Shown piece by piece: positions 7,113-54,653 of a stretch of DNA of 64,000 nucleotides; positions within the stretch are counted from its first letter, which is position 1; each line of letters starts with the position of its first letter. Location of the stretch: assembly GCA_949082785.1 (NCBI GenBank), contig CARVLU010000004.1:23371-87370 (forward strand), given 5' to 3'. Source of the DNA: an uncultured Alphaproteobacteria bacterium (lineage in GTDB: Bacteria; Pseudomonadota; Alphaproteobacteria; Rs-D84). The notes beneath the pieces were generated by a model. That model was not told the origin of the DNA. It saw only the letters and a program-made list of their open reading frames with translations, and did not search any database. A program made the translations under genes and the position numbers.

Positions 7113-8177
7113 CTACTTCAATTCATCGGCCAGTGTTGCGACCGCAATCGCATACCAGTTGGAATTGTTCCATTTTTTTATCCGGTAAAAATTGGGATAC
7201 GTTAAATACGCAACAATGACCGGGCGCGGCGCAATATCGGTATCCGTGCCGTATTCGGATGCCGCATCGACCGTGGTGGCAGATTCCTGTAACGCATCCT
7301 GTCGCAAATCGGCAACCAAACCCGCCGCCATATCCGCAACCGGGATGGGCGTGCCATCGGGATTTGTAACCCCCATCGCGGCCCATTCGGTCAAATTTTT
7401 CCGCGTTTTACCATCGACCAGCGATAAATCAAAATCCGCCGGCAACGTCACGCGCCGCACAATACGTTGGGACGGGTCCCACCCCAGTTTATTCAAATAA
7501 TTGCCCGCGCTGAACATGGCGTCACCCACACTGTGGATAATATCGATTTTCCCGTCGCCATTGCCGTCCGCGCCGTATTGTTCCAGCGTTGTCGGGATAA
7601 ATTGGAAATGCCCCATCGCCCCGGCCCAGCTGCCGTGGATATCGGTGATATCCAGTTTATTTTTACTGGCAGTTTTCATCAGCGACAACAATTGCTTTTT
7701 AAAAAAAGTTTCACGCCGTCCTTCGTACATCAATGTTAAAAACGCATCCGTTAATTGATGTCGCGCCTTGACCGCGCCATAATTCGATTCCAATCCCCAA
7801 AAAGCCAAAATAACATGTGCCGGCACCCCGTATGTGGATTCCACGCGCCCCAGCATTGTTGGATAAACAGTGCGCATTTTTTGACCGTTGCTTATCCGGG
7901 TTTGATTAATCATGCGGCCCAAATATTGGTCCAGTGTTAATTTAAATTCGGATTGATTGGCGTCACTGCGCACAATCGACGGGATAAAGTTCGGCGACCG
8001 CAATGTTGCCTTTATCGTATCGGCATCCACGCCCGCCGCGGTTGCGGACGTGCGCACATCGGCCAAAATCGCGTCCCAGCGTTCCATGTCAAAGCATCCC
8101 CGGTCGGCGCACATTCCCGCCCCCGGCACCAGCGCAATCGCCACCAGCCCGCACAAACGTGACATAAATTTATTCAT
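7113..8177 (-). CDS. lytic murein transglycosylase (MltB family) with C-terminal peptidoglycan-binding domain
   Basis: Signal peptide. GVPAHVILAFWGLESNYG...GAMGHFQFIPTTLEQYGADGNGDGKIDI is the MltB/Slt family 3 catalytic region. Confidence 0.85.
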   Translation of the reverse strand: MNKFMSRLCGLVAIALVPGAGMCADRGCFDMERWDAILADVRTSATAAGVDADTIKATLRSPNFIPSIVRSDANQSEFKLTLDQYLGRMINQTRISNGQKMRTVYPTMLGRVESTYGVPAHVILAFWGLESNYGAVKARHQLTDAFLTLMYEGRRETFFKKQLLSLMKTASKNKLDITDIHGSWAGAMGHFQFIPTTLEQYGADGNGDGKIDIIHSVGDAMFSAGNYLNKLGWDPSQRIVRRVTLPADFDLSLVDGKTRKNLTEWAAMGVTNPDGTPIPVADMAAGLVADLRQDALQESATTVDAASEYGTDTDIAPRPVIVAYLTYPNFYRIKKWNNSNWYAIAVATLADELK

Positions 8178-8201
8178 ATCATCAACCTTGGTTAAAAAAA
8201 C

Positions 8202-9683
8202 TTAAAACGCGTACTTTACACCGATGTGCAAACCGAACGATTGCCATGTGGCGTATTTCAAAGAATTTGAAACATCTTCGGTATGCGCGGGAACCGTTTC
8301 CAAAATCGGCAGATTATTATCGTCCAAGATATACTGGCCATTTTCATCGACCAAATAATGGCTGTATTCTGCGATATATAATTTACCCGGGATGTTGCCC
8401 ACGTGGAAACAGTTTGTGTCAACCTTTAACGACAACTGCAACCGGTCGGACAATCTGTAATTGTATTCCATTTCTGCAATGTACGAATATGCACCCTTGC
8501 TTCCTTCGTCCAAGAAACTGGGGTTTTGTTGCCAATCGGTACGGTTGGGCCAAATCCCTTCGGATGAATATTTGGGCAAACCAAACTGGACATAGAAACG
8601 CAGCTTGTCGTTCAGTGTCATTTGCTTTTCCACCTCCAATCCGACGTAAAATCCAGACCACGTTGTGTTGTAAATATGGGTTGTCCCATCGATACGGACC
8701 ATGCCATCGCCACCGATGATGACGCAATCGCCCGGTTCCACGCCCCACGGAATGGTTCCCATCGCCGGGTCGTAATCACCGGTCACCAATTGATTCCCCA
8801 ATTCAAAGAACCCACTGCCGGGCGCCTGGACCAACTTGATATCTTCGGGCGACATACAGACCTGGTACCAATCGTCGGGTGCGGCGGTACCGACCGGCAA
8901 CGTATAATAATACCCGTTGGCGTCGCCATAGACATAATCCCCCTTGTCCGTCATTAATGGCAGATAAATCCCCGGATTGGGATAAATATGGTCGGACATT
9001 TCCAGATTATGCTTAAAGATTTCATAACCAATCGACGGCGACAATTTCCATCCGCCGATGTCCCACACATGATGGGCGCCCAAACCGATGCGCAAATGAT
9101 TGCTGCGCCCGGACATTTCCCCCATGGAAATGGTAAAAATCCCTTCGGCTGGTTTGGCGTGGTCAAACGGTTCCAAATCGTAATCCATGGACAACCCGCC
9201 ATGGTTTAAATCACCGTACGTGTATTCCCCGTATGCGAACAAATCGAAATTACGAATGGAAAAGTTATGGCGTGCACCGACCGTCAATTCGTTAAAGACC
9301 ATGTCATCCCATTCCAGGATGGAATTAACGCCGGTTTTAAATTGAAAATCCGCAAAGCGGCGCGAATACCCGGCATAGATGCTGGGGCCCTTTTCGGCAT
9401 CCGGCGGCAACGCAATGCCGTTGGTGGTCATGGTGCCGGCGATAATTGCCGATTGCGCGACGGGGCGCGGCACTTCGTACGATTGGCTGCGCGTACCGAC
9501 AACCTGTTTCTGGCCGGATTGACCCACATATTTGGTGTACCCCTGGCTGGCATACTGGCCATACCCCATCTGATTGGCGTTCTGGGTCTGGGTTTGATAG
9601 TAAACGGGCACCCCTTCCTGGGCGGCGATGGCGCCCCCAGACATCAGGATTATGGACAAGATTGCAAAAAAACGTGTATTCAT
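8202..9683 (-). CDS. outer-membrane beta-barrel protein (putative porin/major OMP)
   Basis: N-terminal signal peptide MNTRFFAILSIILMSGGAIAA, alternating amphipathic segments and C-terminal ...GLHIGVKYAF with terminal Phe, typical of OM beta-barrels. No specific family recognised. Confidence 0.5.
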   Translation of the reverse strand: MNTRFFAILSIILMSGGAIAAQEGVPVYYQTQTQNANQMGYGQYASQGYTKYVGQSGQKQVVGTRSQSYEVPRPVAQSAIIAGTMTTNGIALPPDAEKGPSIYAGYSRRFADFQFKTGVNSILEWDDMVFNELTVGARHNFSIRNFDLFAYGEYTYGDLNHGGLSMDYDLEPFDHAKPAEGIFTISMGEMSGRSNHLRIGLGAHHVWDIGGWKLSPSIGYEIFKHNLEMSDHIYPNPGIYLPLMTDKGDYVYGDANGYYYTLPVGTAAPDDWYQVCMSPEDIKLVQAPGSGFFELGNQLVTGDYDPAMGTIPWGVEPGDCVIIGGDGMVRIDGTTHIYNTTWSGFYVGLEVEKQMTLNDKLRFYVQFGLPKYSSEGIWPNRTDWQQNPSFLDEGSKGAYSYIAEMEYNYRLSDRLQLSLKVDTNCFHVGNIPGKLYIAEYSHYLVDENGQYILDDNNLPILETVPAHTEDVSNSLKYATWQSFGLHIGVKYAF

Positions 9684-13087: not shown

Positions 13088-13876
13088 ATGAAACACATCA
13101 TGATACGAATTGCCGGCGGCATGGTTGCGGCGTTTGGAATTATTGTCAATCGCGGTCATGCAGACGTGAATAATTGCACCACGTGGACGAACGAAACCGC
13201 GGGTAATTTAAATTACAAAAAATGTTCATACAACAGCGACGGCGGCGGGTATCGATACTTTGCCAGCTGGTCCAGTGTCCCCACCGGCAGCAATGCCTTG
13301 GCGCCGGCGCGCGAAACATGTATGAACGCCATGGGGACCATTGATTATCCGGGCTGCAAAAGTGGTCGCTGTAATCAGACCGGCATTGTCTGCGAAGATA
13401 CGGGGCTGCTGTTTTCTGTGGGCTGTTGCCTGGCCAGTCCGTCGTACGGCCAGCCCGGCGCATGCGCCACCAATGCCACGGGATGCCGCGTCCAGGTTAT
13501 GCCGATAGAGGCCGCAAATTACACCTACTATCGTTTTAACAGTTGTGCGAACGGTTATTACACCCCGACGAATTTGGGCGGGACATGCACCGGAACGTAT
13601 TCATCGTTGGAATCAATTACCGCCTGTTGCGCGCAATGTTCGGGATACCAAAACATCAACGGCCAATGGGTCACGGTCAACGGGGCGTCGGGATCAACAT
13701 CCGGCATATTTATCAATACGTCCACCACACCGGGCATGGGGATTACAACATGTTTGGCGTCAATGTCCCTGGGGCCCATCACCGCCAAAGACAACAGTGG
13801 CACGTACGATTTGATGGGATTTGTGGATGCAAACAACCCCGGTACATATACCAGTGGTTGTTATTATTCCGAATAA
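13088..13876 (+). CDS. secreted cysteine-rich protein (paralog family A)
   Basis: Signal peptide MKHIMIRIAGGMVAAFGIIVNRGHA; more than 20 Cys in CxxC / C...GYY arrangements; ends ...SGCYYSE. Ribosome-binding site ggggg 6 nt upstream. Confidence 0.6.
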   Translation: MKHIMIRIAGGMVAAFGIIVNRGHADVNNCTTWTNETAGNLNYKKCSYNSDGGGYRYFASWSSVPTGSNALAPARETCMNAMGTIDYPGCKSGRCNQTGIVCEDTGLLFSVGCCLASPSYGQPGACATNATGCRVQVMPIEAANYTYYRFNSCANGYYTPTNLGGTCTGTYSSLESITACCAQCSGYQNINGQWVTVNGASGSTSGIFINTSTTPGMGITTCLASMSLGPITAKDNSGTYDLMGFVDANNPGTYTSGCYYSE

Positions 13877-15421: not shown

Positions 15422-15496
15422 CAGTTTCCGGTCATCCGGAAGGAAGGGAGCACTGTCGGGACATCTGTCCCGACAGTTTTTTATCATCACGACCAT

Positions 15497-15601
15497 TTCC
15501 CTGGATTGCCACGCCACTGACGTGGCTCGCAATGACAAAGGAGATACAGTGCCAGGCAATTCAACACCCTTGTCATTGCGAGCCATCGGCGAAGCAATCC
15601 A
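15497..15601. repeat. MITE-like palindromic element, copy A (9 bp TIR ctggattgc/gcaatccag; internal ctcgcaatgacaa / ttgtcattgcgag arms)
   Basis: ctggattgccacgccactgacgtggctcgcaatgacaaagg...cccttgtcattgcgagccatcggcgaagcaatccag. A second copy is at 19818-19925. Confidence 0.55.
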
Positions 15602-15637
15602 GTAAAAAAAATCCCCACACCAATAAATTTAAATTCC

Positions 15638-15666
15638 TTGAAACTTCGCGCGGGGTGCGATATACT
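15638..15666 (+). promoter_or_regulatory. sigma70-type promoter TTGAAA-17-TATACT driving leader RNA copy 1
   Basis: ttgaaa(15638-43), 17 nt spacer, tatact(15661-66). The identical promoter is present in the inverted copy at 19754-19782. Confidence 0.5.
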
Positions 15667-15672
15667 GGATTC

Positions 15673-15848
15673 GCATTGGGAAACCGGTGTAGGCTTCAAA
15701 ACCTAATAGTACTGTCAGTGATGACATTAAACTATCTCCAACTTTAATCGGTTGGGGGGCTGTGAATATATTGAATAAACAGCGCTATTGTACTAATAGT
15801 TTTGAACCTCCAACCGCCCACAATGTTGTCGGGCGGTGTTTTTTTGCT
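15673..15848 (+). ncRNA. structured leader RNA, copy 1 (outer helix ttcaaaac..gtac/gtac..ttttgaa; long-range ggttggggg/cctccaacc pairing; intrinsic terminator ccgccc..gggcgg-U8)
   Basis: Predicted transcription start ~7 nt after the -10. GGTTGGGGGGCTGTGAATATATTGAATA...CCTCCAACC followed by a terminator ending 24 nt before the ATG at 15872. Family members are at 17244-17417 (-), 19578-19747 (-) and 54058-54160 (+). Confidence 0.45.
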
Positions 15849-15871
15849 TAAAAAAAATAAGGAGTCAAACT

Positions 15872-16099
15872 ATGGCAAAATTATTAATCGACGCAAACTA
15901 TTACGGCAGTGTGATGCGTCATGCGCGCGAACATTTGAAAATCAGTGTTTCCGACGCGGCAAAATTACTGAAAATGAACAAGAAAGATTATCAGAAATGT
16001 GAACGTGGCCAGGCGCTGTTTGATATCGGGATACTGCGCCGTTTCTTTCACGGGGCGTTTGCACTGCTGGTGATAAAACGCAGCCGCGATAATTTGTAG
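15872..16099 (+). CDS. small XRE/Cro-type HTH protein (75 aa), copy A
   Basis: MAKLLIDANYYGSVMRHAREHLKISVSDAAKLLKMNKKDYQKCERGQ is a helix-turn-helix. aaggag ribosome-binding site 8 nt upstream. A near-identical paralog is at 19334-19561 (-). Confidence 0.7.
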   Translation: MAKLLIDANYYGSVMRHAREHLKISVSDAAKLLKMNKKDYQKCERGQALFDIGILRRFFHGAFALLVIKRSRDNL

Positions 16100-16175
16100 C
16101 GCGCATCCGCGTGGCAATCCAGGAATAGGGCATTGTGCGCGTTATGGGATGCCAAAAGGGGACAAAGTGACATAA

Positions 16176-16207
16176 CAAAAACCCCGGCGGTTGCCGGGGA
16201 TTTTATT
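16176..16207. terminator. bidirectional intrinsic terminator
   Basis: aaaaa ccccggcggttgccgggg attttatttc. Confidence 0.6.
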
Positions 16208-16370
16208 TCGCCTTTTTCAGGGACGGTTTGCGGGGGCGGCATTTGTATGCGTTTTTGTCCGCAATCGACAGGGCAATCGCCACCGCCTGTTTCTGGGGGC
16301 GGCCGGCGTGGACTTCGGCGCGGATGTTTTCGGATATGGTTTTGCGGGTGCAACCTTGTTTCAGGGGCAT
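16203..16370 (-). CDS. small basic hypothetical protein (55 aa)
   Basis: MPLKQGCTRKTISENIRAEVHAGRPQKQAVAIALSIADKNAYKCRPRKPSLKKAK. Ribosome-binding site aaagg 8 nt upstream of the ATG at 16370. Confidence 0.4.
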   Translation of the reverse strand: MPLKQGCTRKTISENIRAEVHAGRPQKQAVAIALSIADKNAYKCRPRKPSLKKAK

Positions 16371-16443
16371 GATATAACCTTTCTGTTTCTGGGGACATTG
16401 TATCACAGCGATGGCGCAAAATATACAGGATGAAAATCCAGCC

Positions 16444-17229
16444 TTAGTCAGACAGGTGATACGTTTGGTCGTTGTATCGCACGTTGATTGATGCGGCCGC
16501 GCCCGACTTTAACACGCCATAGCATGTTTTGCCGCCATATCCAATGCGCAATGAAGGCGTGGTATATGCCACCGGATACAAATTAAACGTGCGCCCATTT
16601 CCGGTTTTTATTTTCCCAATTCCGGCCCCGCACAGGGGCACGCATGTGCCATCGTGATTGCCATAACCCGCGTCGCATTCCCATGGACAGTCGTTGGTCG
16701 GCGAACTGTCGGATTGTGCGGGCGTGCCGGCCCCGGTATAATGCGCATGTTCCGGCAGATTTGTGCATGGCCGGGCGTATCGGTACCACGTGTGCCATGT
16801 TGTCCCCACATATTGGGCCAAATAATATCCGGGGTTGGCCCGGTACCATAAAAATGCGGATTGGCCATTCCAGTAATCGGTGCCATTATACCAGCTTTCG
16901 ATATACAGTTCCCCATATGGGCTGGATATAAAGACACCTGCGAAACAATGTGCCGGCCAGATGGCCCCGTTTGTCGATGAACCGGGGTTCCACGACATCA
17001 GCCATGATTGTTGCGTCACCCGGTCCACCGGGTACAGTGTCGATACGAATCCGTACCAATCGGTCGTGTCCGTCGGACATGGATGTTGCGTGTCGTCACC
17101 GGGACAATAATACCCATCGACGCATTTTTCGCATGTGGTGCCGTTTAAATACATCCCCCCATCGCATACGCCCCATGCCACCGCCGGCATTCCCATCACG
17201 CACGCAATTGTCCATAAAACAAATTTCAT
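16444..17229 (-). CDS. secreted cysteine-rich protein (paralog family B)
   Basis: Signal peptide MKFVLWTIACVMGMPAVAWG from the ATG at 17229. Motifs CEKCVDGYYCPGDDTQHPCP and CPWECDAGYGNHDGTCVPLCG; W/Y-rich middle. Confidence 0.6.
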   Translation of the reverse strand: MKFVLWTIACVMGMPAVAWGVCDGGMYLNGTTCEKCVDGYYCPGDDTQHPCPTDTTDWYGFVSTLYPVDRVTQQSWLMSWNPGSSTNGAIWPAHCFAGVFISSPYGELYIESWYNGTDYWNGQSAFLWYRANPGYYLAQYVGTTWHTWYRYARPCTNLPEHAHYTGAGTPAQSDSSPTNDCPWECDAGYGNHDGTCVPLCGAGIGKIKTGNGRTFNLYPVAYTTPSLRIGYGGKTCYGVLKSGAAASINVRYNDQTYHLSD

Positions 17230-17243
17230 TGTTAACCCCGAAC

Positions 17244-17417
17244 AAAAAATAAAACCACCAGAAACGTTTCGGGTGGTTGGAGTTTTACAACAATTGAACG
17301 AATTGCGCGGTTTATTCAATGTATTCACCACACTCCAACCGACAAGATTGGAATGTTTATCGTCACACGGACGCGTTCAACGGGTTGTAAAGCCCCATGG
17401 CGCCATCGGCCACCACG
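17244..17417 (-). ncRNA. structured leader RNA, copy 2 (promoter GTGACA-17-TATAAT at 17424-17452; ggttggag/ctccaacc; terminator ccaccc..ggtgg-U)
   Basis: Minus-strand ggttggagtgtggtgaatacattgaataaaccgcgc...aaactccaaccacccgaaacgtttctggtggttttatttttt ending 15 nt before the start codon of the cysteine-rich gene. Confidence 0.45.
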
Positions 17418-17506
17418 GGGTATATTATAACGCAAGTTTTGAAAATTGTCACCCCATTATTTTGGGGCGATAAATGAAAAACGGGGGCGGGCCCCGTTTT
17501 GTTTTA

Positions 17507-17833
17507 TTAATGCGCCATCAGATGTAAAATCACACTGGTGATAAAAATCAGGGTGATGATGCCCAAAATAAATTTCTGGGGTTTGTGGCCGTCATTGCCG
17601 TGGCAATGGTCGCATTCGCATCGGCAATCACGCACCACCAACACCCACGACAGACCCAACATCCCGGCGGAAAACACGAACAGCCACGGTTCCAGCCATT
17701 GCGGAATAATATGCAGATGCGCAGATTCCGGCGCAATCAATCCCACAATCGACAGCGCAATCGGCAGACCGCAACAAAAGACATGCGGCAACAATGACGC
17801 CGCGATTCCAATTTTAACAGCTTTGTTTTTCAT
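17507..17833 (-). CDS. MerT-like metal transport membrane protein
   Basis: VFCCGLPIALSIVGLI (Cys pair in TM1) and LEPWLFVFSAGMLGLSW resemble MerT. Loop DCRCECDHCHGNDGH is metal-binding-like. The ATG at 17833 is 7 nt after a TATAAT (near-leaderless). Confidence 0.55.
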   Translation of the reverse strand: MKNKAVKIGIAASLLPHVFCCGLPIALSIVGLIAPESAHLHIIPQWLEPWLFVFSAGMLGLSWVLVVRDCRCECDHCHGNDGHKPQKFILGIITLIFITSVILHLMAH

Positions 17834-17886
17834 GATGTATATTATACGCAATTTTGCGCCAAACGCCAAAAAATTTTTTATTCAGT

Positions 17887-17962
17887 TGGTATCCCCAGAC
17901 GGAATCGAACCGCCATTTAATTCTTAGGAGGAATTTGTTCTATCCGATTGAACTATGGGGAC
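17887..17962 (-). tRNA. tRNA-Arg (anticodon CCU)
   Basis: Cloverleaf folded by hand: acceptor GTCCCCA/TGGGGAT, anticodon loop CTCCTAA, T-loop GGTTCGATTCC, 3' CCA. Confidence 0.85.
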
Positions 17963-18049
17963 GTGTTCCTTATATCTTATTCGCTGGATTTTAATATTGC
18001 AAGTTATTATCCGCCAGACTATAATGTTCAAACAATATGGAGAAAAAGT

Positions 18050-18988
18050 ATGGGTAGCAGACTGGTTGGGTACGGGTCATATTTGCCTGAAAAAATTATG
18101 ACCAATCAAGATTTTGAAAAAATTATGGATACATCCGATGAATGGATTGTGCAACGCACCGGGATGCGCGAACGTCACTTTGCACGCGATGACGAAACCG
18201 TTGTTGATATGGGCGTCATTGCCGCACAGCGGGCGTTGGAACGCGCAAATTTAACCATCGATGATATCGATATGGTCGTGGTTGCAACAACGACATCTGA
18301 ATTGGATTTCCCGTCGGTCGGGGTCCAGATTCTGGGGAAATTGGGCGCCACCCGGGACCAGCCCGGATTTGACGTGCGCGGGGCATGTACGGGATATATT
18401 TATGCGCTGCATTGCGCGCGCGCGTTCTTTACCGCGGGGATGTACCGCCGCATCATGGTTATCGGCGCGGAAAAAATGTCCCGCTTTATCAATTGGGACG
18501 ACCGCAGCACCGCCGTATTGTTCGGCGATGGGGCGGGCGCGCTGATTTTCGAACATTCCACGTCCAGTTATTCCGGGATTATCGATACGGTCGTGATGGG
18601 TGACGGGAAATCGTTCGACATGCTGCACGGGACACCCGACCACAAGATTTCCATGAACGGACCCGAAACGTATAAAAAGGCCGTGACATTAATGCCCGAA
18701 GCCGCCAGTTACATCATGGAACATGCGGGCATCACGGCGGACAACGTCGATTGGATTATCCCGCACCAGGCAAATCTGCGCATTATCAACAGTGGCGCGG
18801 AAAGACTGGGGTTCCCGTTGGAAAAGATTTTGGTCACCGTGGACAAGCATGCAAACACCAGCGGCGCGTCGGGCGTATTGGCGTTGGCGTATGGGATGGA
18901 CAACGGTTTGATTAAACAGGGTCAGTTAATCTTGTACCCCGCATTTGGCAGTGGTCTGACATGGGGTGCGGCGTTAATCAGGGTGTAA
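18050..18988 (+). CDS. fabH: 3-oxoacyl-ACP synthase III
   Basis: MGSRLVGYGSYLPEKIMTNQDFEKIMDTSDEWIVQRTGMRERHFA...GACTGYIYALHCA (active-site Cys) ...HQANLRII...GNTSGAS. The listed ORF starts at an upstream TTG; the ATG at 18050 is preferred. Confidence 0.9.
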   Translation: MGSRLVGYGSYLPEKIMTNQDFEKIMDTSDEWIVQRTGMRERHFARDDETVVDMGVIAAQRALERANLTIDDIDMVVVATTTSELDFPSVGVQILGKLGATRDQPGFDVRGACTGYIYALHCARAFFTAGMYRRIMVIGAEKMSRFINWDDRSTAVLFGDGAGALIFEHSTSSYSGIIDTVVMGDGKSFDMLHGTPDHKISMNGPETYKKAVTLMPEAASYIMEHAGITADNVDWIIPHQANLRIINSGAERLGFPLEKILVTVDKHANTSGASGVLALAYGMDNGLIKQGQLILYPAFGSGLTWGAALIRV

Positions 18989-18992
18989 ACAC

Positions 18993-19274
18993 ATGGCAAC
19001 AATTACCAGAATGGATTTTGCAAACAAATTGCGTGAACAGTTCGGTCTGACCACGACGGATTCGTACAAACTGGTGGATGTGATTTTCGGGGAAATCCAG
19101 GAATCATTAATCCACGGCGAAGAAGTCAAGTTTGCGGGTCTGGGCAGTTTCAAGATTTTGGACAAGGCCCCACGTATGGGCCGCAACCCGAAAACGGGCG
19201 CGCCGGCGATTATTTCTGCGCGTCGCGTGGCAACATTCCGCCCCAGCACCGAATTCAGAAAACGTGTTGCGTAA
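18993..19274 (+). CDS. ihfA: integration host factor subunit alpha
   Basis: MATITRMDFANKLREQFGLTTTDSYKLVDVIFGEIQESLIHGEEVKFAGLGSFKILDKAPRMGRNPKTGAP is HU/IHF family, directly after fabH as in alphaproteobacteria. Confidence 0.85.
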   Translation: MATITRMDFANKLREQFGLTTTDSYKLVDVIFGEIQESLIHGEEVKFAGLGSFKILDKAPRMGRNPKTGAPAIISARRVATFRPSTEFRKRVA

Positions 19275-19280
19275 ATCATT

Positions 19281-19310
19281 AAAAACACCGGTAAATACCG
19301 GTGTTTTTTA
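19281..19310. terminator. bidirectional intrinsic terminator between ihfA (+) and HTH copy B (-)
   Basis: aaaaa caccggtaaataccggtg tttttta. Confidence 0.6.
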
Positions 19311-19333
19311 TTGGTTGCATCCCAGGATTGGTG

Positions 19334-19561
19334 TTACAAATTGTCGCGGCTGCGTTTTATCACCAGCAGTGCAAACGCCCCGTGAAAGAAACGACGCAGT
19401 ATCCCGATATCAAACAGCGCCTGCCCACGTTCACATTTCTGATAATCTTTCTTGTTCATTTTCAATAATTTTGCCGCGTCGGCAACACTGATTTTCAAAT
19501 GTTCGCGCGCATGACGCATCACGCTGCCATAGTAATTGGCGTCGATTAATAATTTAGCCAT
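19334..19561 (-). CDS. small XRE/Cro-type HTH protein (75 aa), copy B
   Basis: MAKLLIDANYYGSVMRHAREHLKISVADAAKLL... has one amino-acid difference and several silent differences from the copy at 15872-16099. Confidence 0.7.
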   Translation of the reverse strand: MAKLLIDANYYGSVMRHAREHLKISVADAAKLLKMNKKDYQKCERGQALFDIGILRRFFHGAFALLVIKRSRDNL

Positions 19562-19577
19562 AGTTTTAACTCCTTTA

Positions 19578-19747
19578 TAAAAACACCACCCAAGACATTT
19601 GGGTGGTTGGAGGTTCAAAACTATTAGTACAATAGCGCTGTTTATTCAATATATTCACAGCCCCCCAACCGATTAAAGTTGGAGATAGTTTAATGTCATC
19701 ACTGACAGTACTATTAGGTTTTGAAGCCTACACCGGTTTCCCAATGC
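19578..19747 (-). ncRNA. structured leader RNA, copy 1b (inverted paralog of 15673-15848; promoter at 19754-19782)
   Basis: Same architecture as copy 1. The terminator ccaccc..gggtgg differs from ccgccc..gggcgg by a compensatory G-C to A-T change. Confidence 0.45.
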
Positions 19748-19817
19748 GAATCCAGTATATCGCACCCCGCGCGAAGTTTCAAGAATTATATCACGCCAGG
19801 TGTGTTGGTTTATTGAC

Positions 19818-19925
19818 TGGATTGCCGCGCCACTATCGTGGCTCGCAATGACAAGGGTGATAAAGTTCCTGGAAATTAGACACCATTGTCATTGCGAAGG
19901 AGTGAAACGACTGCGGCAATCCAGT
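19818..19925. repeat. MITE-like palindromic element, copy B
   Basis: ctggattgccgcgccactatcgtggctcgcaatgacaaggg...ccattgtcattgcgaaggag...gcaatccag, same TIR as copy A. Confidence 0.55.
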
Positions 19926-19983
19926 GAATAAAATCCCCGCCATGGGCGGGGCGCAAACAAAAAATCCCCCATACGGGGGATGA

Positions 19984-21048
19984 TTATTGTTCGGCCATTA
20001 ATTCAGCCTTGATCGGTGCCAGCGCATCCACATGCGCACTGATTTTATGATACACATCCGATTTGGTTAAATTCAGTGCACTGCGTATCGCGTTTGCGAA
20101 CGCCAATGCGTCACTGTTGCCGTGTGTTTTAATCGCAAACCCACGCAGCCCCAAGAACATCGCCCCCGCATATGAACGCGGGTCAATTTTATGTTTCAAA
20201 CGCTTGAACACATGGACCAAGAAAAATGCCCCGACAACCGCCAGCACAGATTTTTTCAAATTTTCCATCAACACGCGCTTAATCAATTTTGCGGTGCCTT
20301 CCACCGTTTTCAAAACGATGTTACCGGTGAACCCGTCGGTGACGACAACCTGGACGTTACCGGCGCTGATATCGGTCCCTTCGACAAAGCCGATATATTC
20401 ATACGGCAATTGGTCACGATGCGCCATCAGCAATTTGTTCAAACGTTGCAGGGTTTCGTTCCCCTTGGTGTCTTCTTCACCGATATTCAAAACACCCAAT
20501 TTCGGATGGGGCATATGACCGATAACGTCGGCATAAACACTGCCCAGGATGGCAAAATCGAACAGATTTTCCGCATCACACCGAACATTGGCCCCCAAAT
20601 CCAGCATGACAACGCGCGAATCCCCGCCGCCCGACGGCAACATGGTTGTGATTGCCGGACGCGAAATCCCATCGACCGTTTTCAGTGCCAATTTCGACAG
20701 CGCCATCAACACGCCGGTGTTACCCGCACTGATGACGGCGGTGGAATTACCTTCGCGGACATCTTTGATGGCCATATACATGGATGTATTCTGGGCATGG
20801 CGGATGACATCGCGCACCTTGTCCGTGCCACGGATAACATCGGGCGCATGGATGATTTCACAATTGCGCGCGACGCGCGGATATTTGTTCATCATCTTGC
20901 GCAGACGTTTTTCATCGCCAAACACACGAAAGAATACCGTATCTTCGCCATTCTGGTACAGGAACTGGTTCATTCCACCCAACACGGCCCCGGGCGCCTT
21001 ATCCCCGCCCATTGCATCAATTGAAATAATTTGTTTTTCGCTGGACAT
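19984..21048 (-). CDS. plsX: phosphate acyltransferase PlsX
   Basis: MSSEKQIISIDAMGGDKAPGAVLGG...GNTGVLMA...VTDGFTGNIVLKTVEG. Two tandem hairpin terminators follow at 19925-19983. Confidence 0.9.
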   Translation of the reverse strand: MSSEKQIISIDAMGGDKAPGAVLGGMNQFLYQNGEDTVFFRVFGDEKRLRKMMNKYPRVARNCEIIHAPDVIRGTDKVRDVIRHAQNTSMYMAIKDVREGNSTAVISAGNTGVLMALSKLALKTVDGISRPAITTMLPSGGGDSRVVMLDLGANVRCDAENLFDFAILGSVYADVIGHMPHPKLGVLNIGEEDTKGNETLQRLNKLLMAHRDQLPYEYIGFVEGTDISAGNVQVVVTDGFTGNIVLKTVEGTAKLIKRVLMENLKKSVLAVVGAFFLVHVFKRLKHKIDPRSYAGAMFLGLRGFAIKTHGNSDALAFANAIRSALNLTKSDVYHKISAHVDALAPIKAELMAEQ

Positions 21049-21116: not shown

Positions 21117-21266
21117 TTATTTAGACCCGCAAGCCGCGCAAACGTGATGCGGGCGTTTCTTTTCGCCGCATGCCTTGCAAACGGTGGACGGCATGATATT
21201 CAGCGCATCATGGGAACGACGCTGTGCGGAACGTGCTTTGCTTGTTTTACTTTTTGGCGTTGCCAT
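21117..21266 (-). CDS. rpmF: 50S ribosomal protein L32
   Basis: Unlisted 50 aa ORF MATPKSKTSKARSAQRRSHDALNIMPSTVCKACGEKKRPHHVCAACGSK with RRSHDAL core and C4 zinc ribbon. Located upstream of plsX as expected. Confidence 0.8.
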   Translation of the reverse strand: MATPKSKTSKARSAQRRSHDALNIMPSTVCKACGEKKRPHHVCAACGSK

Positions 21267-53894: not shown

Positions 53895-54057
53895 GATATC
53901 CCTTTTGTTACTTTGCGGGGGCATTATAACAACGTTTTGCTTGCACCGCAAATTTTATATTGTTATGATGAAAATGTTATCGGGCGTTCCGATAACGGGG
54001 TTTAGCGACCCATTCTTGTACGCCGGCATACACGCGTCATGGTATGCGCTTTTTTCT

Positions 54058-54160
54058 ATCTCCAACTATTGGGTTGGAGGGTGTGGAAATATATTCGAAT
54101 ACCACCACTATTTACAAGATAGTCGCTAACCTCCAACCGCCTGTTTCTGGCGGTTTTTCG
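54058..54160 (+). ncRNA. structured leader RNA, copy 3 (outer helix ctatct/agatag; ggttggagg/cctccaacc; terminator ccgcc..ggcgg-U5)
   Basis: atctccaactattgggttggagggtgtggaaatatattcgaatacc...ctaacctccaaccgcctgtttctggcggttttt ends 28 nt before the ATG at 54189. A candidate promoter TTGCAC-17-TATGAT lies at 53941-53969. Confidence 0.45.
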
Positions 54161-54188: not shown

Positions 54189-54653
54189 ATGAAACATAAA
54201 TCAGTCTGGGTCGGGGTTGCGCTGTTGATACCGACCGGCATCCACGGGGCCACCTGGGTTACACCATCGTGTTGCAGCGAGAATACAATTGCGCCATCCA
54301 CCATCAAATGCAAAAGCGTCACCCGCAAAGTGGAATGCGGCGGCATAACAATCGTTGATTGCGGCGAATGCCAATCGGGATACAGCCCGTACCAGGCCAA
54401 AAAAACCGTTTGCAGCGGCGCCGCCCAACAAACCATCACATACCAGGATTGTATGCAAAACGTTGTCGTTTCGTGCAGCGTTGGTGAATACCAGGACGGA
54501 ATGCTGTGCGCCAAATGCCCGGACGGTGGAAAATCCGATATTGGCGCCACGTCCATCACCCAGTGTTATAAACCCAAATACGAAAACACGTTTTCCGATT
54601 CCACCGGCAGCGGGGTTACGGGGATGGATAATAACTGTTATTACACGAAATAA
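54189..54653 (+). CDS. secreted cysteine-rich protein (paralog family C)
   Basis: Signal peptide MKHKSVWVGVALLIPTGIHG; motifs CGECQSGYSPY and CAKCPDGG; ends NNCYYTK. ggagg ribosome-binding site. Confidence 0.6.
   Translation: MKHKSVWVGVALLIPTGIHGATWVTPSCCSENTIAPSTIKCKSVTRKVECGGITIVDCGECQSGYSPYQAKKTVCSGAAQQTITYQDCMQNVVVSCSVGEYQDGMLCAKCPDGGKSDIGATSITQCYKPKYENTFSDSTGSGVTGMDNNCYYTK

Follow-up and report, generated by a model that had tools for sequence, protein, structure and literature searches.

We analyse here a window of 64,000 nucleotides (nt; contig CARVLU010000004.1) from an uncultured alphaproteobacterium of the order Rs-D84, in which a 3.2 kb segment carrying fabH and a gene of the HU/IHF family (ihfA) is bracketed by two inverted copies of one cassette and lies in the orientation opposite to that in the nearest relatives. 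The cassette, 0.6 kb in size, is composed of a palindrome (D1), a spacer, a sigma-70 promoter, a leader RNA of about 170 nt ending in a terminator, and a gene for a 75-amino-acid (aa) Xre-type helix-turn-helix (HTH) protein. We propose that the arrangement has probably arisen in two steps, where a second cassette, of a type that we call B, was installed next to plsX and homologous recombination between the two cassettes then flipped the segment between them, the product being a fixed structural variant and the RNA of the cassettes a cis-acting leader.

The inverted arrangement and its distribution among strains

The strain comparison is anchored on contigs that encode exactly the FabH protein of the window (100% identical), the contigs fetched from relatives for comparison being numbered here as loci with the letter L. 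Two arrangements are found among them. Eleven contigs with the identical FabH are of the window type, with two cassettes and with fabH-ihfA opposite to plsX (as in L002 and L084), and ten are of the co-oriented type (as in L001 and L003), with one cassette and with fabH-ihfA co-oriented with plsX. The order in the co-oriented type is rpoB-rpoC-rpmF-plsX (+), p55 (-), CysR (-), a 108-aa gene (-), fabH (+), ihfA (+) and the single HTH cassette (-), where p55 denotes a 55-aa gene and CysR a gene for a Cys-rich secreted protein. The same one-cassette order is present in the sister metagenome-assembled genome (MAG) L004, the PlsX of which is 97% identical to that of the window and which serves as the outgroup. 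A blastn map shows that only positions 16121-19897 of the window are reversed relative to L001, with both flanks unchanged and 97-99% identical; the segment proper, 16123-19324, is collinear with L001 8101-11288 but runs the other way with respect to both flanks.

The two copies of the repeat were placed by the preliminary description at 15625-16102 (+) and 19331-19800 (-), with an identity of about 95% and with the same promoter, leader RNA and 75-aa HTH gene in each, and this is borne out in full. In a global alignment 440 of 462 aligned bases are identical (95.2%, or 90.5% if the 24 gap columns are counted), with the longest perfect run being 179 nt. A repeat search gives two pairs of arms, 15630-15820/19600-19790 (191 nt, 98%) and 15867-16108/19325-19566 (242 nt, 94%), parted by a short indel-rich stretch, and beyond the repeats a homology of ~80% reaches outward through the palindrome D1, to 15493 and 19938. 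The promoter TTGAAA-17-TATACT lies at 15638-15666 (+) in the left cassette, being kept in all paralogues, and at 19782-19754 (-) in the right one, where it was located by a promoter scan. It is followed in the left cassette by the leader RNA at 15673-15845 (+; 121 bits with the covariance model, the start being inferred from the -10 box), the terminator of which occupies 15814-15836 plus a T run, and in the right cassette by the leader RNA at 19579-19747 (-; covariance model and terminator scan), with its terminator at 19586-19606. The HTH genes then lie at 15872-16099 (+; HTH-L, from open reading frame (ORF), profile and fold searches) and at 19334-19561 (-; HTH-R, from ORF and profile search), and their 75-aa products differ by one residue. 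Their 12 nucleotide differences are composed of 10 synonymous ones, the substitution S27A and a TAG versus TAA stop; because 10 of the 12 are synonymous and only one residue is changed, both genes are under purifying selection. The HTH gene is the sole ORF of the repeat, with no transposase in it.

Outside each cassette stands a full D1, these two being the only full copies in the window, one at each outer boundary. The left one, at 15501-15607, is of type A and has the form CTGGATTGCC..TCGCAATGACAA..TTGTCATTGCGA..GCAATCCAG, resembling the REP/REPIN elements, which are short repeated extragenic palindromes mobilised by RAYT transposases. It is identical to the D1 beside the single cassette of L001. 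The right one, D1' (19817-19924), is a hybrid, as is seen by comparison with L001, L004, L086a and L101.

It had been expected that flipping the segment would place fabH-ihfA on the strand of plsX and would thereby restore an order rpmF-plsX-fabH-ihfA. The former is correct: comparison of the fabH and plsX orientations in the nearest relatives, as the preliminary description had suggested, shows the segment to be inverted relative to L001, L003 and L004, all of which have fabH-ihfA on the plsX strand. The latter does not hold, since 2 kb of opposite-strand genes remain between plsX and fabH even in L001. In the genus-level comparison, which comprises 80 loci anchored on plsX among the first 91 loci fetched, plsX and fabH are adjacent in none of the 80, and thus the order that was termed canonical is not the local norm. 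In these loci rpoC-rpmF-plsX is invariant, and two downstream blocks, one of the 108-aa gene, fabH and ihfA and the other of p110 and mraZ, are found in both orientations at distances of 0-10 kb. In several distant species ihfA (-) faces plsX (+) without such repeats (e.g. L048 and L060). Repeat-free relatives having the window orientation, which the preliminary description had named as evidence against the inversion, therefore do exist, but they do not decide the matter, given that the state of the nearest relatives is the opposite one. It is also noted that in L041, L048, L055, L060, L070, L072 and L073 ihfA and the 108-aa gene are about 470 nt apart, and therefore in those species fabH is not in that block, being elsewhere or absent.

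As to the suggestion that the segment could still be invertible in the population, the exact HTH-L protein was used to gather 23 contigs, each of which was read for its arrangement. All 23 have the window arrangement, also when compared within 900 bp on either side, and the assemblies show a single orientation per genotype, giving no support to continued inversion. Other large inverted pairs are few in a self-comparison of the 91 loci (L073 and L076). The one in L076 (12486-12786/16627-16928) is an unrelated inverted repeat of 303 bp and 93% identity around ~3.8 kb shortly downstream of plsX, where examination of the ORFs was uninformative. The GC skew was considered as a clock of the inversion and was uninformative, because the skew here follows the coding strand.

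History of the inversion

The junctions of the window can be read against those of the relatives. L001 and L004 carry after plsX a solitary D1', essentially identical between the two. The plsX-proximal half of the window D1' equals this solitary D1' up to the core CGCAATGACAA, and from the core onwards the other half together with the spacer equals the B-type cassette of L086a/L101, with one mismatch over about 110 nt. This B-type cassette is found at the secG locus of L086 and L101. In L101 it carries spacer B (31/31), the terminator of type L, CCGCCCACAATGTTGTCGGGCGG (23/23), and CCGCGTGGCAATCCAGGAA as its 3' end. Of these, the right copy of the window has spacer B, and the left copy has the L101-like terminator and 3' end. 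The left copy ends with positions 16100-16108 and a 14-nt fragment of the D1 right end, GCGTGGCAATCCAG (16109-16122), which together match the 3' end of the L101 B-type cassette. The fragment is joined to the segment as in L001, so that the 3' end of the left copy adjoins the segment exactly where D1' adjoins it in L001.

A corresponding mosaic runs through the copies themselves. The A-type (L001-like) allele is found in the left copy at 15480-15636, then the copies are identical at 15637-15815, after which the A-type allele is in the right copy at 15816-15866, in the left copy again at 15877-16039 and in the right copy again at 16090-16135, giving at least three switches of A-type alleles between the two copies. 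Judged from the sequences, such reciprocal A/B patches are the product that would be expected of a crossover between two diverged inverted copies, and the identical stretch of 179 nt would be a conversion tract. Selection alone does not explain the identical stretch, because other paralogues vary freely there, with compensation. Recombination between the inverted copies, as proposed in the preliminary description, is thus retained as the best explanation of the flip and of the reciprocal patches. What that proposal lacked is a prior step creating the second cassette, which is needed because the strains of the other orientation have only one; also, the repeats are not a local duplication.

Based on these data we consider the following pathway. 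The ancestor would have had the order plsX, solitary D1', p55, CysR, the membrane-protein gene, a tRNA gene, fabH, ihfA, one A-type cassette facing ihfA, D1, p110 and mraZ, an order that L001 and L004 retain. In the first step, a B-type cassette, of the kind present at the secG locus, would be copied into the solitary D1' via D1 homology, with the left join at the D1 core and the right join at the D1 right end GCAATCCAG(GAA). This would produce an inverted pair of cassettes around the 3.2 kb segment, and the predicted intermediate reads plsX-D1'-spacer B-...-terminator L-...-CCGCGTGGCAATCCAG-GAATAGGG, with the B cassette intact and the segment still co-oriented. In the second step, for which the mosaic is the evidence, general homologous recombination between the cassettes would flip the segment; an odd number of crossovers is required, and three switches are visible. 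Later gene conversion would make the 179 nt identical. The outcome would be a fixed structural variant of one strain lineage and not a programmed switch.

Some observations weigh against this pathway. The assemblies are consensus sequences, in which minority orientations are invisible, and in them a two-cassette strain with the segment co-oriented with plsX was found in none of the 23 HTH-L contigs. For the A and B parental types, cassettes of other strains or species had to stand in as proxies, and the cassette of L001 is itself partly converted in the RNA and in the middle of the coding sequence. Moreover, RNA-HTH cassettes lie directly downstream of plsX and co-oriented with it in the distant species L011, L013 and L014, and on genus-level data this would allow an ancestor with two cassettes followed by loss. 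If this ancestor is assumed, the window arrangement is the older one and the L001/L004 order results from a flip plus deletion of the plsX-side cassette. It would then be expected that the deletion either recreated the solitary D1' twice or predated the split of the strains, as a complete solitary D1', with a right half unlike that of the window, is common to L001 and the more distant L004, while the window D1' is visibly a hybrid with a cassette type from another locus. We consider this reversed history to be quite unlikely.

Somewhat less improbable, yet still unlikely, is that the inversion occurred by recombination or cruciform breakage at D1 and D1', the second cassette being gained or duplicated separately. 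D1 and D1' are indeed homologous to each other in both orientations, and the 64 kb holds no copies other than these two, which mark the outer boundaries exactly. On its left side the new material joins within the D1 core, and D1 elements form arrays and flank many cassettes. However, a flip between D1 and D1' predicts a single all-A cassette with spacer A beside plsX, which is inconsistent with spacer B in the plsX-side copy, and the reciprocal A/B patches would be left without explanation. That a site-specific recombinase acts on the repeats, making the segment a programmed, phase-variable switch, is very improbable, even though the segment between the inverted repeats includes a gene resembling those for surface proteins and the species has both orientations. 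Against the short sites (about 10-40 bp) of invertases, the repeats here measure 475 bp, are diverged and contain genes, and the opposite orientation is found only with a different copy number. It would also be hard to reconcile with the single orientation of all 23 HTH-L contigs and with the internal promoters of the segment genes. The genes called in the 10 kb to each side include no recombinase or transposase, and replicative transposition, which could have given an inversion with a duplicated element, is rejected because there is no transposase and spacer B is of foreign origin. Finally, the arrangement could have been made by short-read mis-joins across the repeats, as the contigs are from MAGs and metagenomes, the repeats contain the identical run of 179 nt, and the contig L085/L115 ends close to the D1 palindrome. 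This we regard as scarcely credible, because the arrangement recurs in >20 independent assemblies (from ENA, NCBI and JGI) and because a mis-join could not generate the different copy number and the unique junction sequence of the other arrangement. Installation of a B cassette followed by homologous recombination between the cassettes is therefore the history that we prefer.

The leader RNA and the dispersed cassette family

With the covariance model, four copies of the leader RNA are found in the window, all of them with a promoter upstream and an ORF downstream. Besides those of the two cassettes, a third copy (17245-17452, -; 102 bits) lies in the segment upstream of CysR, with a promoter of its own (GTGACA-17-TATAAT, 17452-17424), a terminator and a first hairpin of variant form, and a fourth, more diverged copy (53998-54134, +; 43 bits, E 3e-8), with a terminator and a ribosome-binding site, precedes a 154-aa signal-peptide Cys-rich gene (54189-54653, +). 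Genus-wide, the genes that follow the RNA code for small HTH proteins, which are very diverged, or for secreted proteins, and the RNA is often found directly downstream of plsX. The leader folds at z = -5.1 relative to shuffles, with an intrinsic terminator just before the ribosome-binding site. The consensus structure from 22 distinct copies has 48 pairs, of which 18 show compensatory changes, with 97.2% of the cells paired; the cells with double changes number 121, compared with 1-22 when the partners are slid as a control, and none of 500 shuffles attains the observed score. At gathering thresholds, Rfam gave only tRNAs in the window and in 16 diverse paralogue loci, and at relaxed E-values its sole match was a sub-threshold one to sRNA-Xcc1 (29-31 bits, E 0.015-0.04, threshold 53). 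A motif scan of viral contigs with the RNA core motif found none, and thus there is no sign of a phage origin in the contigs scanned.

Three elements of the RNA, CUCCAACC, GGUUGGAGG and CCUCCAACC, are complementary to one another, and in L064 and L020 their changes are coordinated, which has the look of an attenuator. A terminator is present in every copy. The alternative helix of 9 bp is pairable in all 22 copies and is 9.3 kcal/mol less stable in silico, and in it the third element, which overlaps the terminator, does so by only 3 nt. When this candidate antiterminator helix is forced, at the cost of 9.3 kcal/mol, a shortened terminator is left, and the forced helix does not make a convincing switch, since the terminator is not abolished. 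Most likely, the RNA acts in cis, as a leader or attenuator by which the downstream gene is controlled. This is the least certain step of our proposal, and because the alternative helix is disfavoured and the terminator persists, the regulatory switch is our interpretation and not a result.

The repeats of the window are two members of a dispersed, lineage-specific family of cassettes in the order Rs-D84 (relatives of Candidatus Enterousia). The HTH family comprises 32 clusters, all at least 66% identical, and is restricted to the lineage. The locus-tag prefix K2L95_, that of one MAG, is shared by at least eight HTH paralogues; the assembly of this MAG holds both L004 and L086. A motif scan finds 7 copies of the RNA core motif on a 278-kb contig and 8 on a 354-kb contig. 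Paralogues at different loci share the whole unit, that is, D1, spacer, promoter, RNA, terminator, ribosome-binding site and HTH gene. Cassettes stand at sites that vary between strains; for one paralogue, two upstream neighbours are found, one in L087 and another in L088. In >18 contigs, the efp/accC locus (L116) is a third site that codes for exactly HTH-R, which is evidence for gene conversion among dispersed cassettes. Part of the variable stems is lost from the RNA of L116, where the HTH gene is followed by two copies of D1. At the secG locus, the sister MAG has in L086 a second inward-facing pair of cassettes, around secG-rnc-lepB-comM, and the orthologous L101 has one cassette, with Cys-rich genes at the other site. 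The L086 pair was considered as a second inversion and was rejected as such, since L101 has the same orientation with one cassette.

D1 is a near-perfect palindrome of ~105 bp, intergenic, multi-copy and typically located after the 3' ends of genes. A search with nhmmer gives 85 matches across the loci, in which D1 is found alone, in tandem arrays and on both sides of many cassettes. An array contains 3 to 9 units, repeated about every 125 bp (L009 18480-20185, L014 11112-11437, L104 3026-3481, L106 6929-7280 and L110 10081-10434), and that of L014 lies directly after plsX and before the RNA-HTH cassette. A literature search with the D1 core sequence gave unrelated primers only. The ORFs of 32-105 aa that the gene finder places in D1 and spacers (window 15532-15747, 19693-19931 and similar; e.g. 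WIAAPLSWLAMT) are artefacts of the palindrome and not genes.

The HTH protein scores just under the Pfam cut-off for HTH_31, and PHROGs and NCBIfam give only generic or weak HTH matches. It is of a generic Xre type, with a predicted fold resembling HipB, ClgR and C-proteins; the Foldseek matches, all with E above 0.001, were confined to generic Xre, HipB and C-protein folds, and a sequence search of the PDB gave no match. The likeness to HipB would reflect the generic Xre HTH fold only. A type II toxin-antitoxin system with an Xre, HipB or MqsA-like antitoxin was considered, and it is rejected because there is no partner gene: in every context seen the HTH gene is monocistronic and convergent with its neighbour. 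One HTH paralogue, P0013 (75 aa), carries the NCBI name 'CRISPR-associated endonuclease Cas1', which is almost certainly an annotation error.

Genes of the segment, related systems and meaning

The remaining genes of the segment are, from the left, p55 (16203-16370, -; ORF), CysR (16444-17229, -), the 108-aa membrane protein gene (17507-17833, -; ORF), the tRNA-Arg (17887-17962, -), fabH (18050-18988, +) and ihfA (18993-19274, +). Each segment gene has its own promoter inside the segment, that of fabH being a promoter-like site at 17997-18025. To the right follow two terminator hairpins after plsX (19935-19981, -), common to L001 and L004, and the fixed flank of plsX (19984-21048, -) and rpmF (21117-21266, -). 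The preliminary gene assignments are supported by Pfam for rpmF, plsX, fabH and the HU/IHF-family gene and by ARAGORN and Rfam for the tRNA, the anticodon of which is CCT, and the cysteine-rich gene is real, with a signal peptide; the label MerT-like has no support in Pfam or NCBIfam. It is also observed that p55 matches the phage family phrog_2423 (E 9e-17), of unknown function, and is kept beside the Cys-rich gene in L001 and L004.

CysR belongs to a secreted Cys-rich family with further members in the window at 13088-13876 (+) and 54189-54653 (+) and in L101 at 7482-8872, the L101 genes sitting where L086 has an HTH cassette. The family is characterised by CxxC...GYY-type repeats, a C-terminal C[YH]Y motif and a weak TNFR-like Pfam match, found also for CysR, and it may represent variable surface proteins. 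Outside the region studied, L001 has at 20362-20859, ~9 kb from the cassette, a gene with the Mtd_N domain next to Pom and SLT_2 genes, and its orthologue is presumably near the start of the window. Mtd_N is the N-terminal domain of the major tropism determinant, the target protein of diversity-generating retroelements.

Chromosomal inversions by homologous recombination between dispersed inverted repeats are known for rrn operons, insertion sequence (IS) copies and prophages. The present case is like them in that long inverted repeats bound the segment, strains differ in its orientation, exchange or conversion tracts are present and no dedicated recombinase is involved. It differs in that the repeat is a 0.6 kb promoter-RNA-HTH cassette with a palindrome, the segment is as short as 3.2 kb, and the second copy would itself have originated at a palindrome. 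With REP/REPIN elements, D1 shares a palindromic doublet of about 100 bp, the intergenic location, the multiple copies and the occasional tandem arrays; unlike them, it goes closely together with a gene cassette and would have been the site at which a new one joined. No RAYT gene turned up in the 64 kb of genome, where no search aimed at RAYT was made. Integron cassettes with their attC sites are likewise small units bounded by imperfect palindromes of about 100 bp, possible in arrays, the content of which varies between strains at one site. By contrast, an integrase and RYYYAAC/GTTRRRY core sites are absent here, the cassettes have individual promoters, and the joins look like homologous or microhomology exchange and not like site-specific cuts.

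As for the RNA, the 3' domain of the leader resembles sRNA-Xcc1 (Rfam RF02221) in that a closing helix, GGNNGGGGG/CCNCCNNCC, encloses two hairpins and ACCC comes next, and that family, which occurs on integrons, genomic islands and prophages, is multi-copy and linked to mobile DNA like the RNA of the cassettes. However, the score is far under the gathering threshold, and the RNA here is about twice as long, has extra covarying helices and is fixed upstream of an ORF. Attenuation leaders and riboswitches are similar in that a structured 5' leader is conserved and an intrinsic terminator immediately precedes the ribosome-binding site, and the RNA here fronts unrelated genes (for HTH and for Cys-rich secreted proteins), with three complementary elements that covary. 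Unlike in attenuators, the alternative helix is thermodynamically disfavoured in silico and the terminator is not fully removed.

The genomes of the order Rs-D84 are reduced, to about 0.75-1.0 Mb (PMC12306168). The inversion itself is ordinary biology, its history being documented junction by junction, and the cassette family and its RNA are the less ordinary parts, worth following up. Reduced genomes usually shed repeats; those of Rs-D84 carry many copies of a 0.6 kb cassette, sited at the breakpoints of rearrangements. More speculatively, and tentatively, it is possible that the cassettes are undescribed non-autonomous elements which, copied by homology between REPIN-like landing pads, would be a main driver of the genus-wide scrambling of gene order in these genomes of <1 Mb, and that the RNA would be a new class of cis-regulatory attenuator or riboswitch over small Xre regulators and variable Cys-rich surface proteins, perhaps serving surface variation in the gut. 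The structured RNA is well supported and has no Rfam family, and it is thus a testable candidate for a new leader or riboswitch class; its position before secreted Cys-rich genes makes it a candidate regulatory circuit in uncultured gut bacteria. The arrangement as a whole offers a concrete model in which palindromic repeats would act as landing sites for gene cassettes with no dedicated recombinase.

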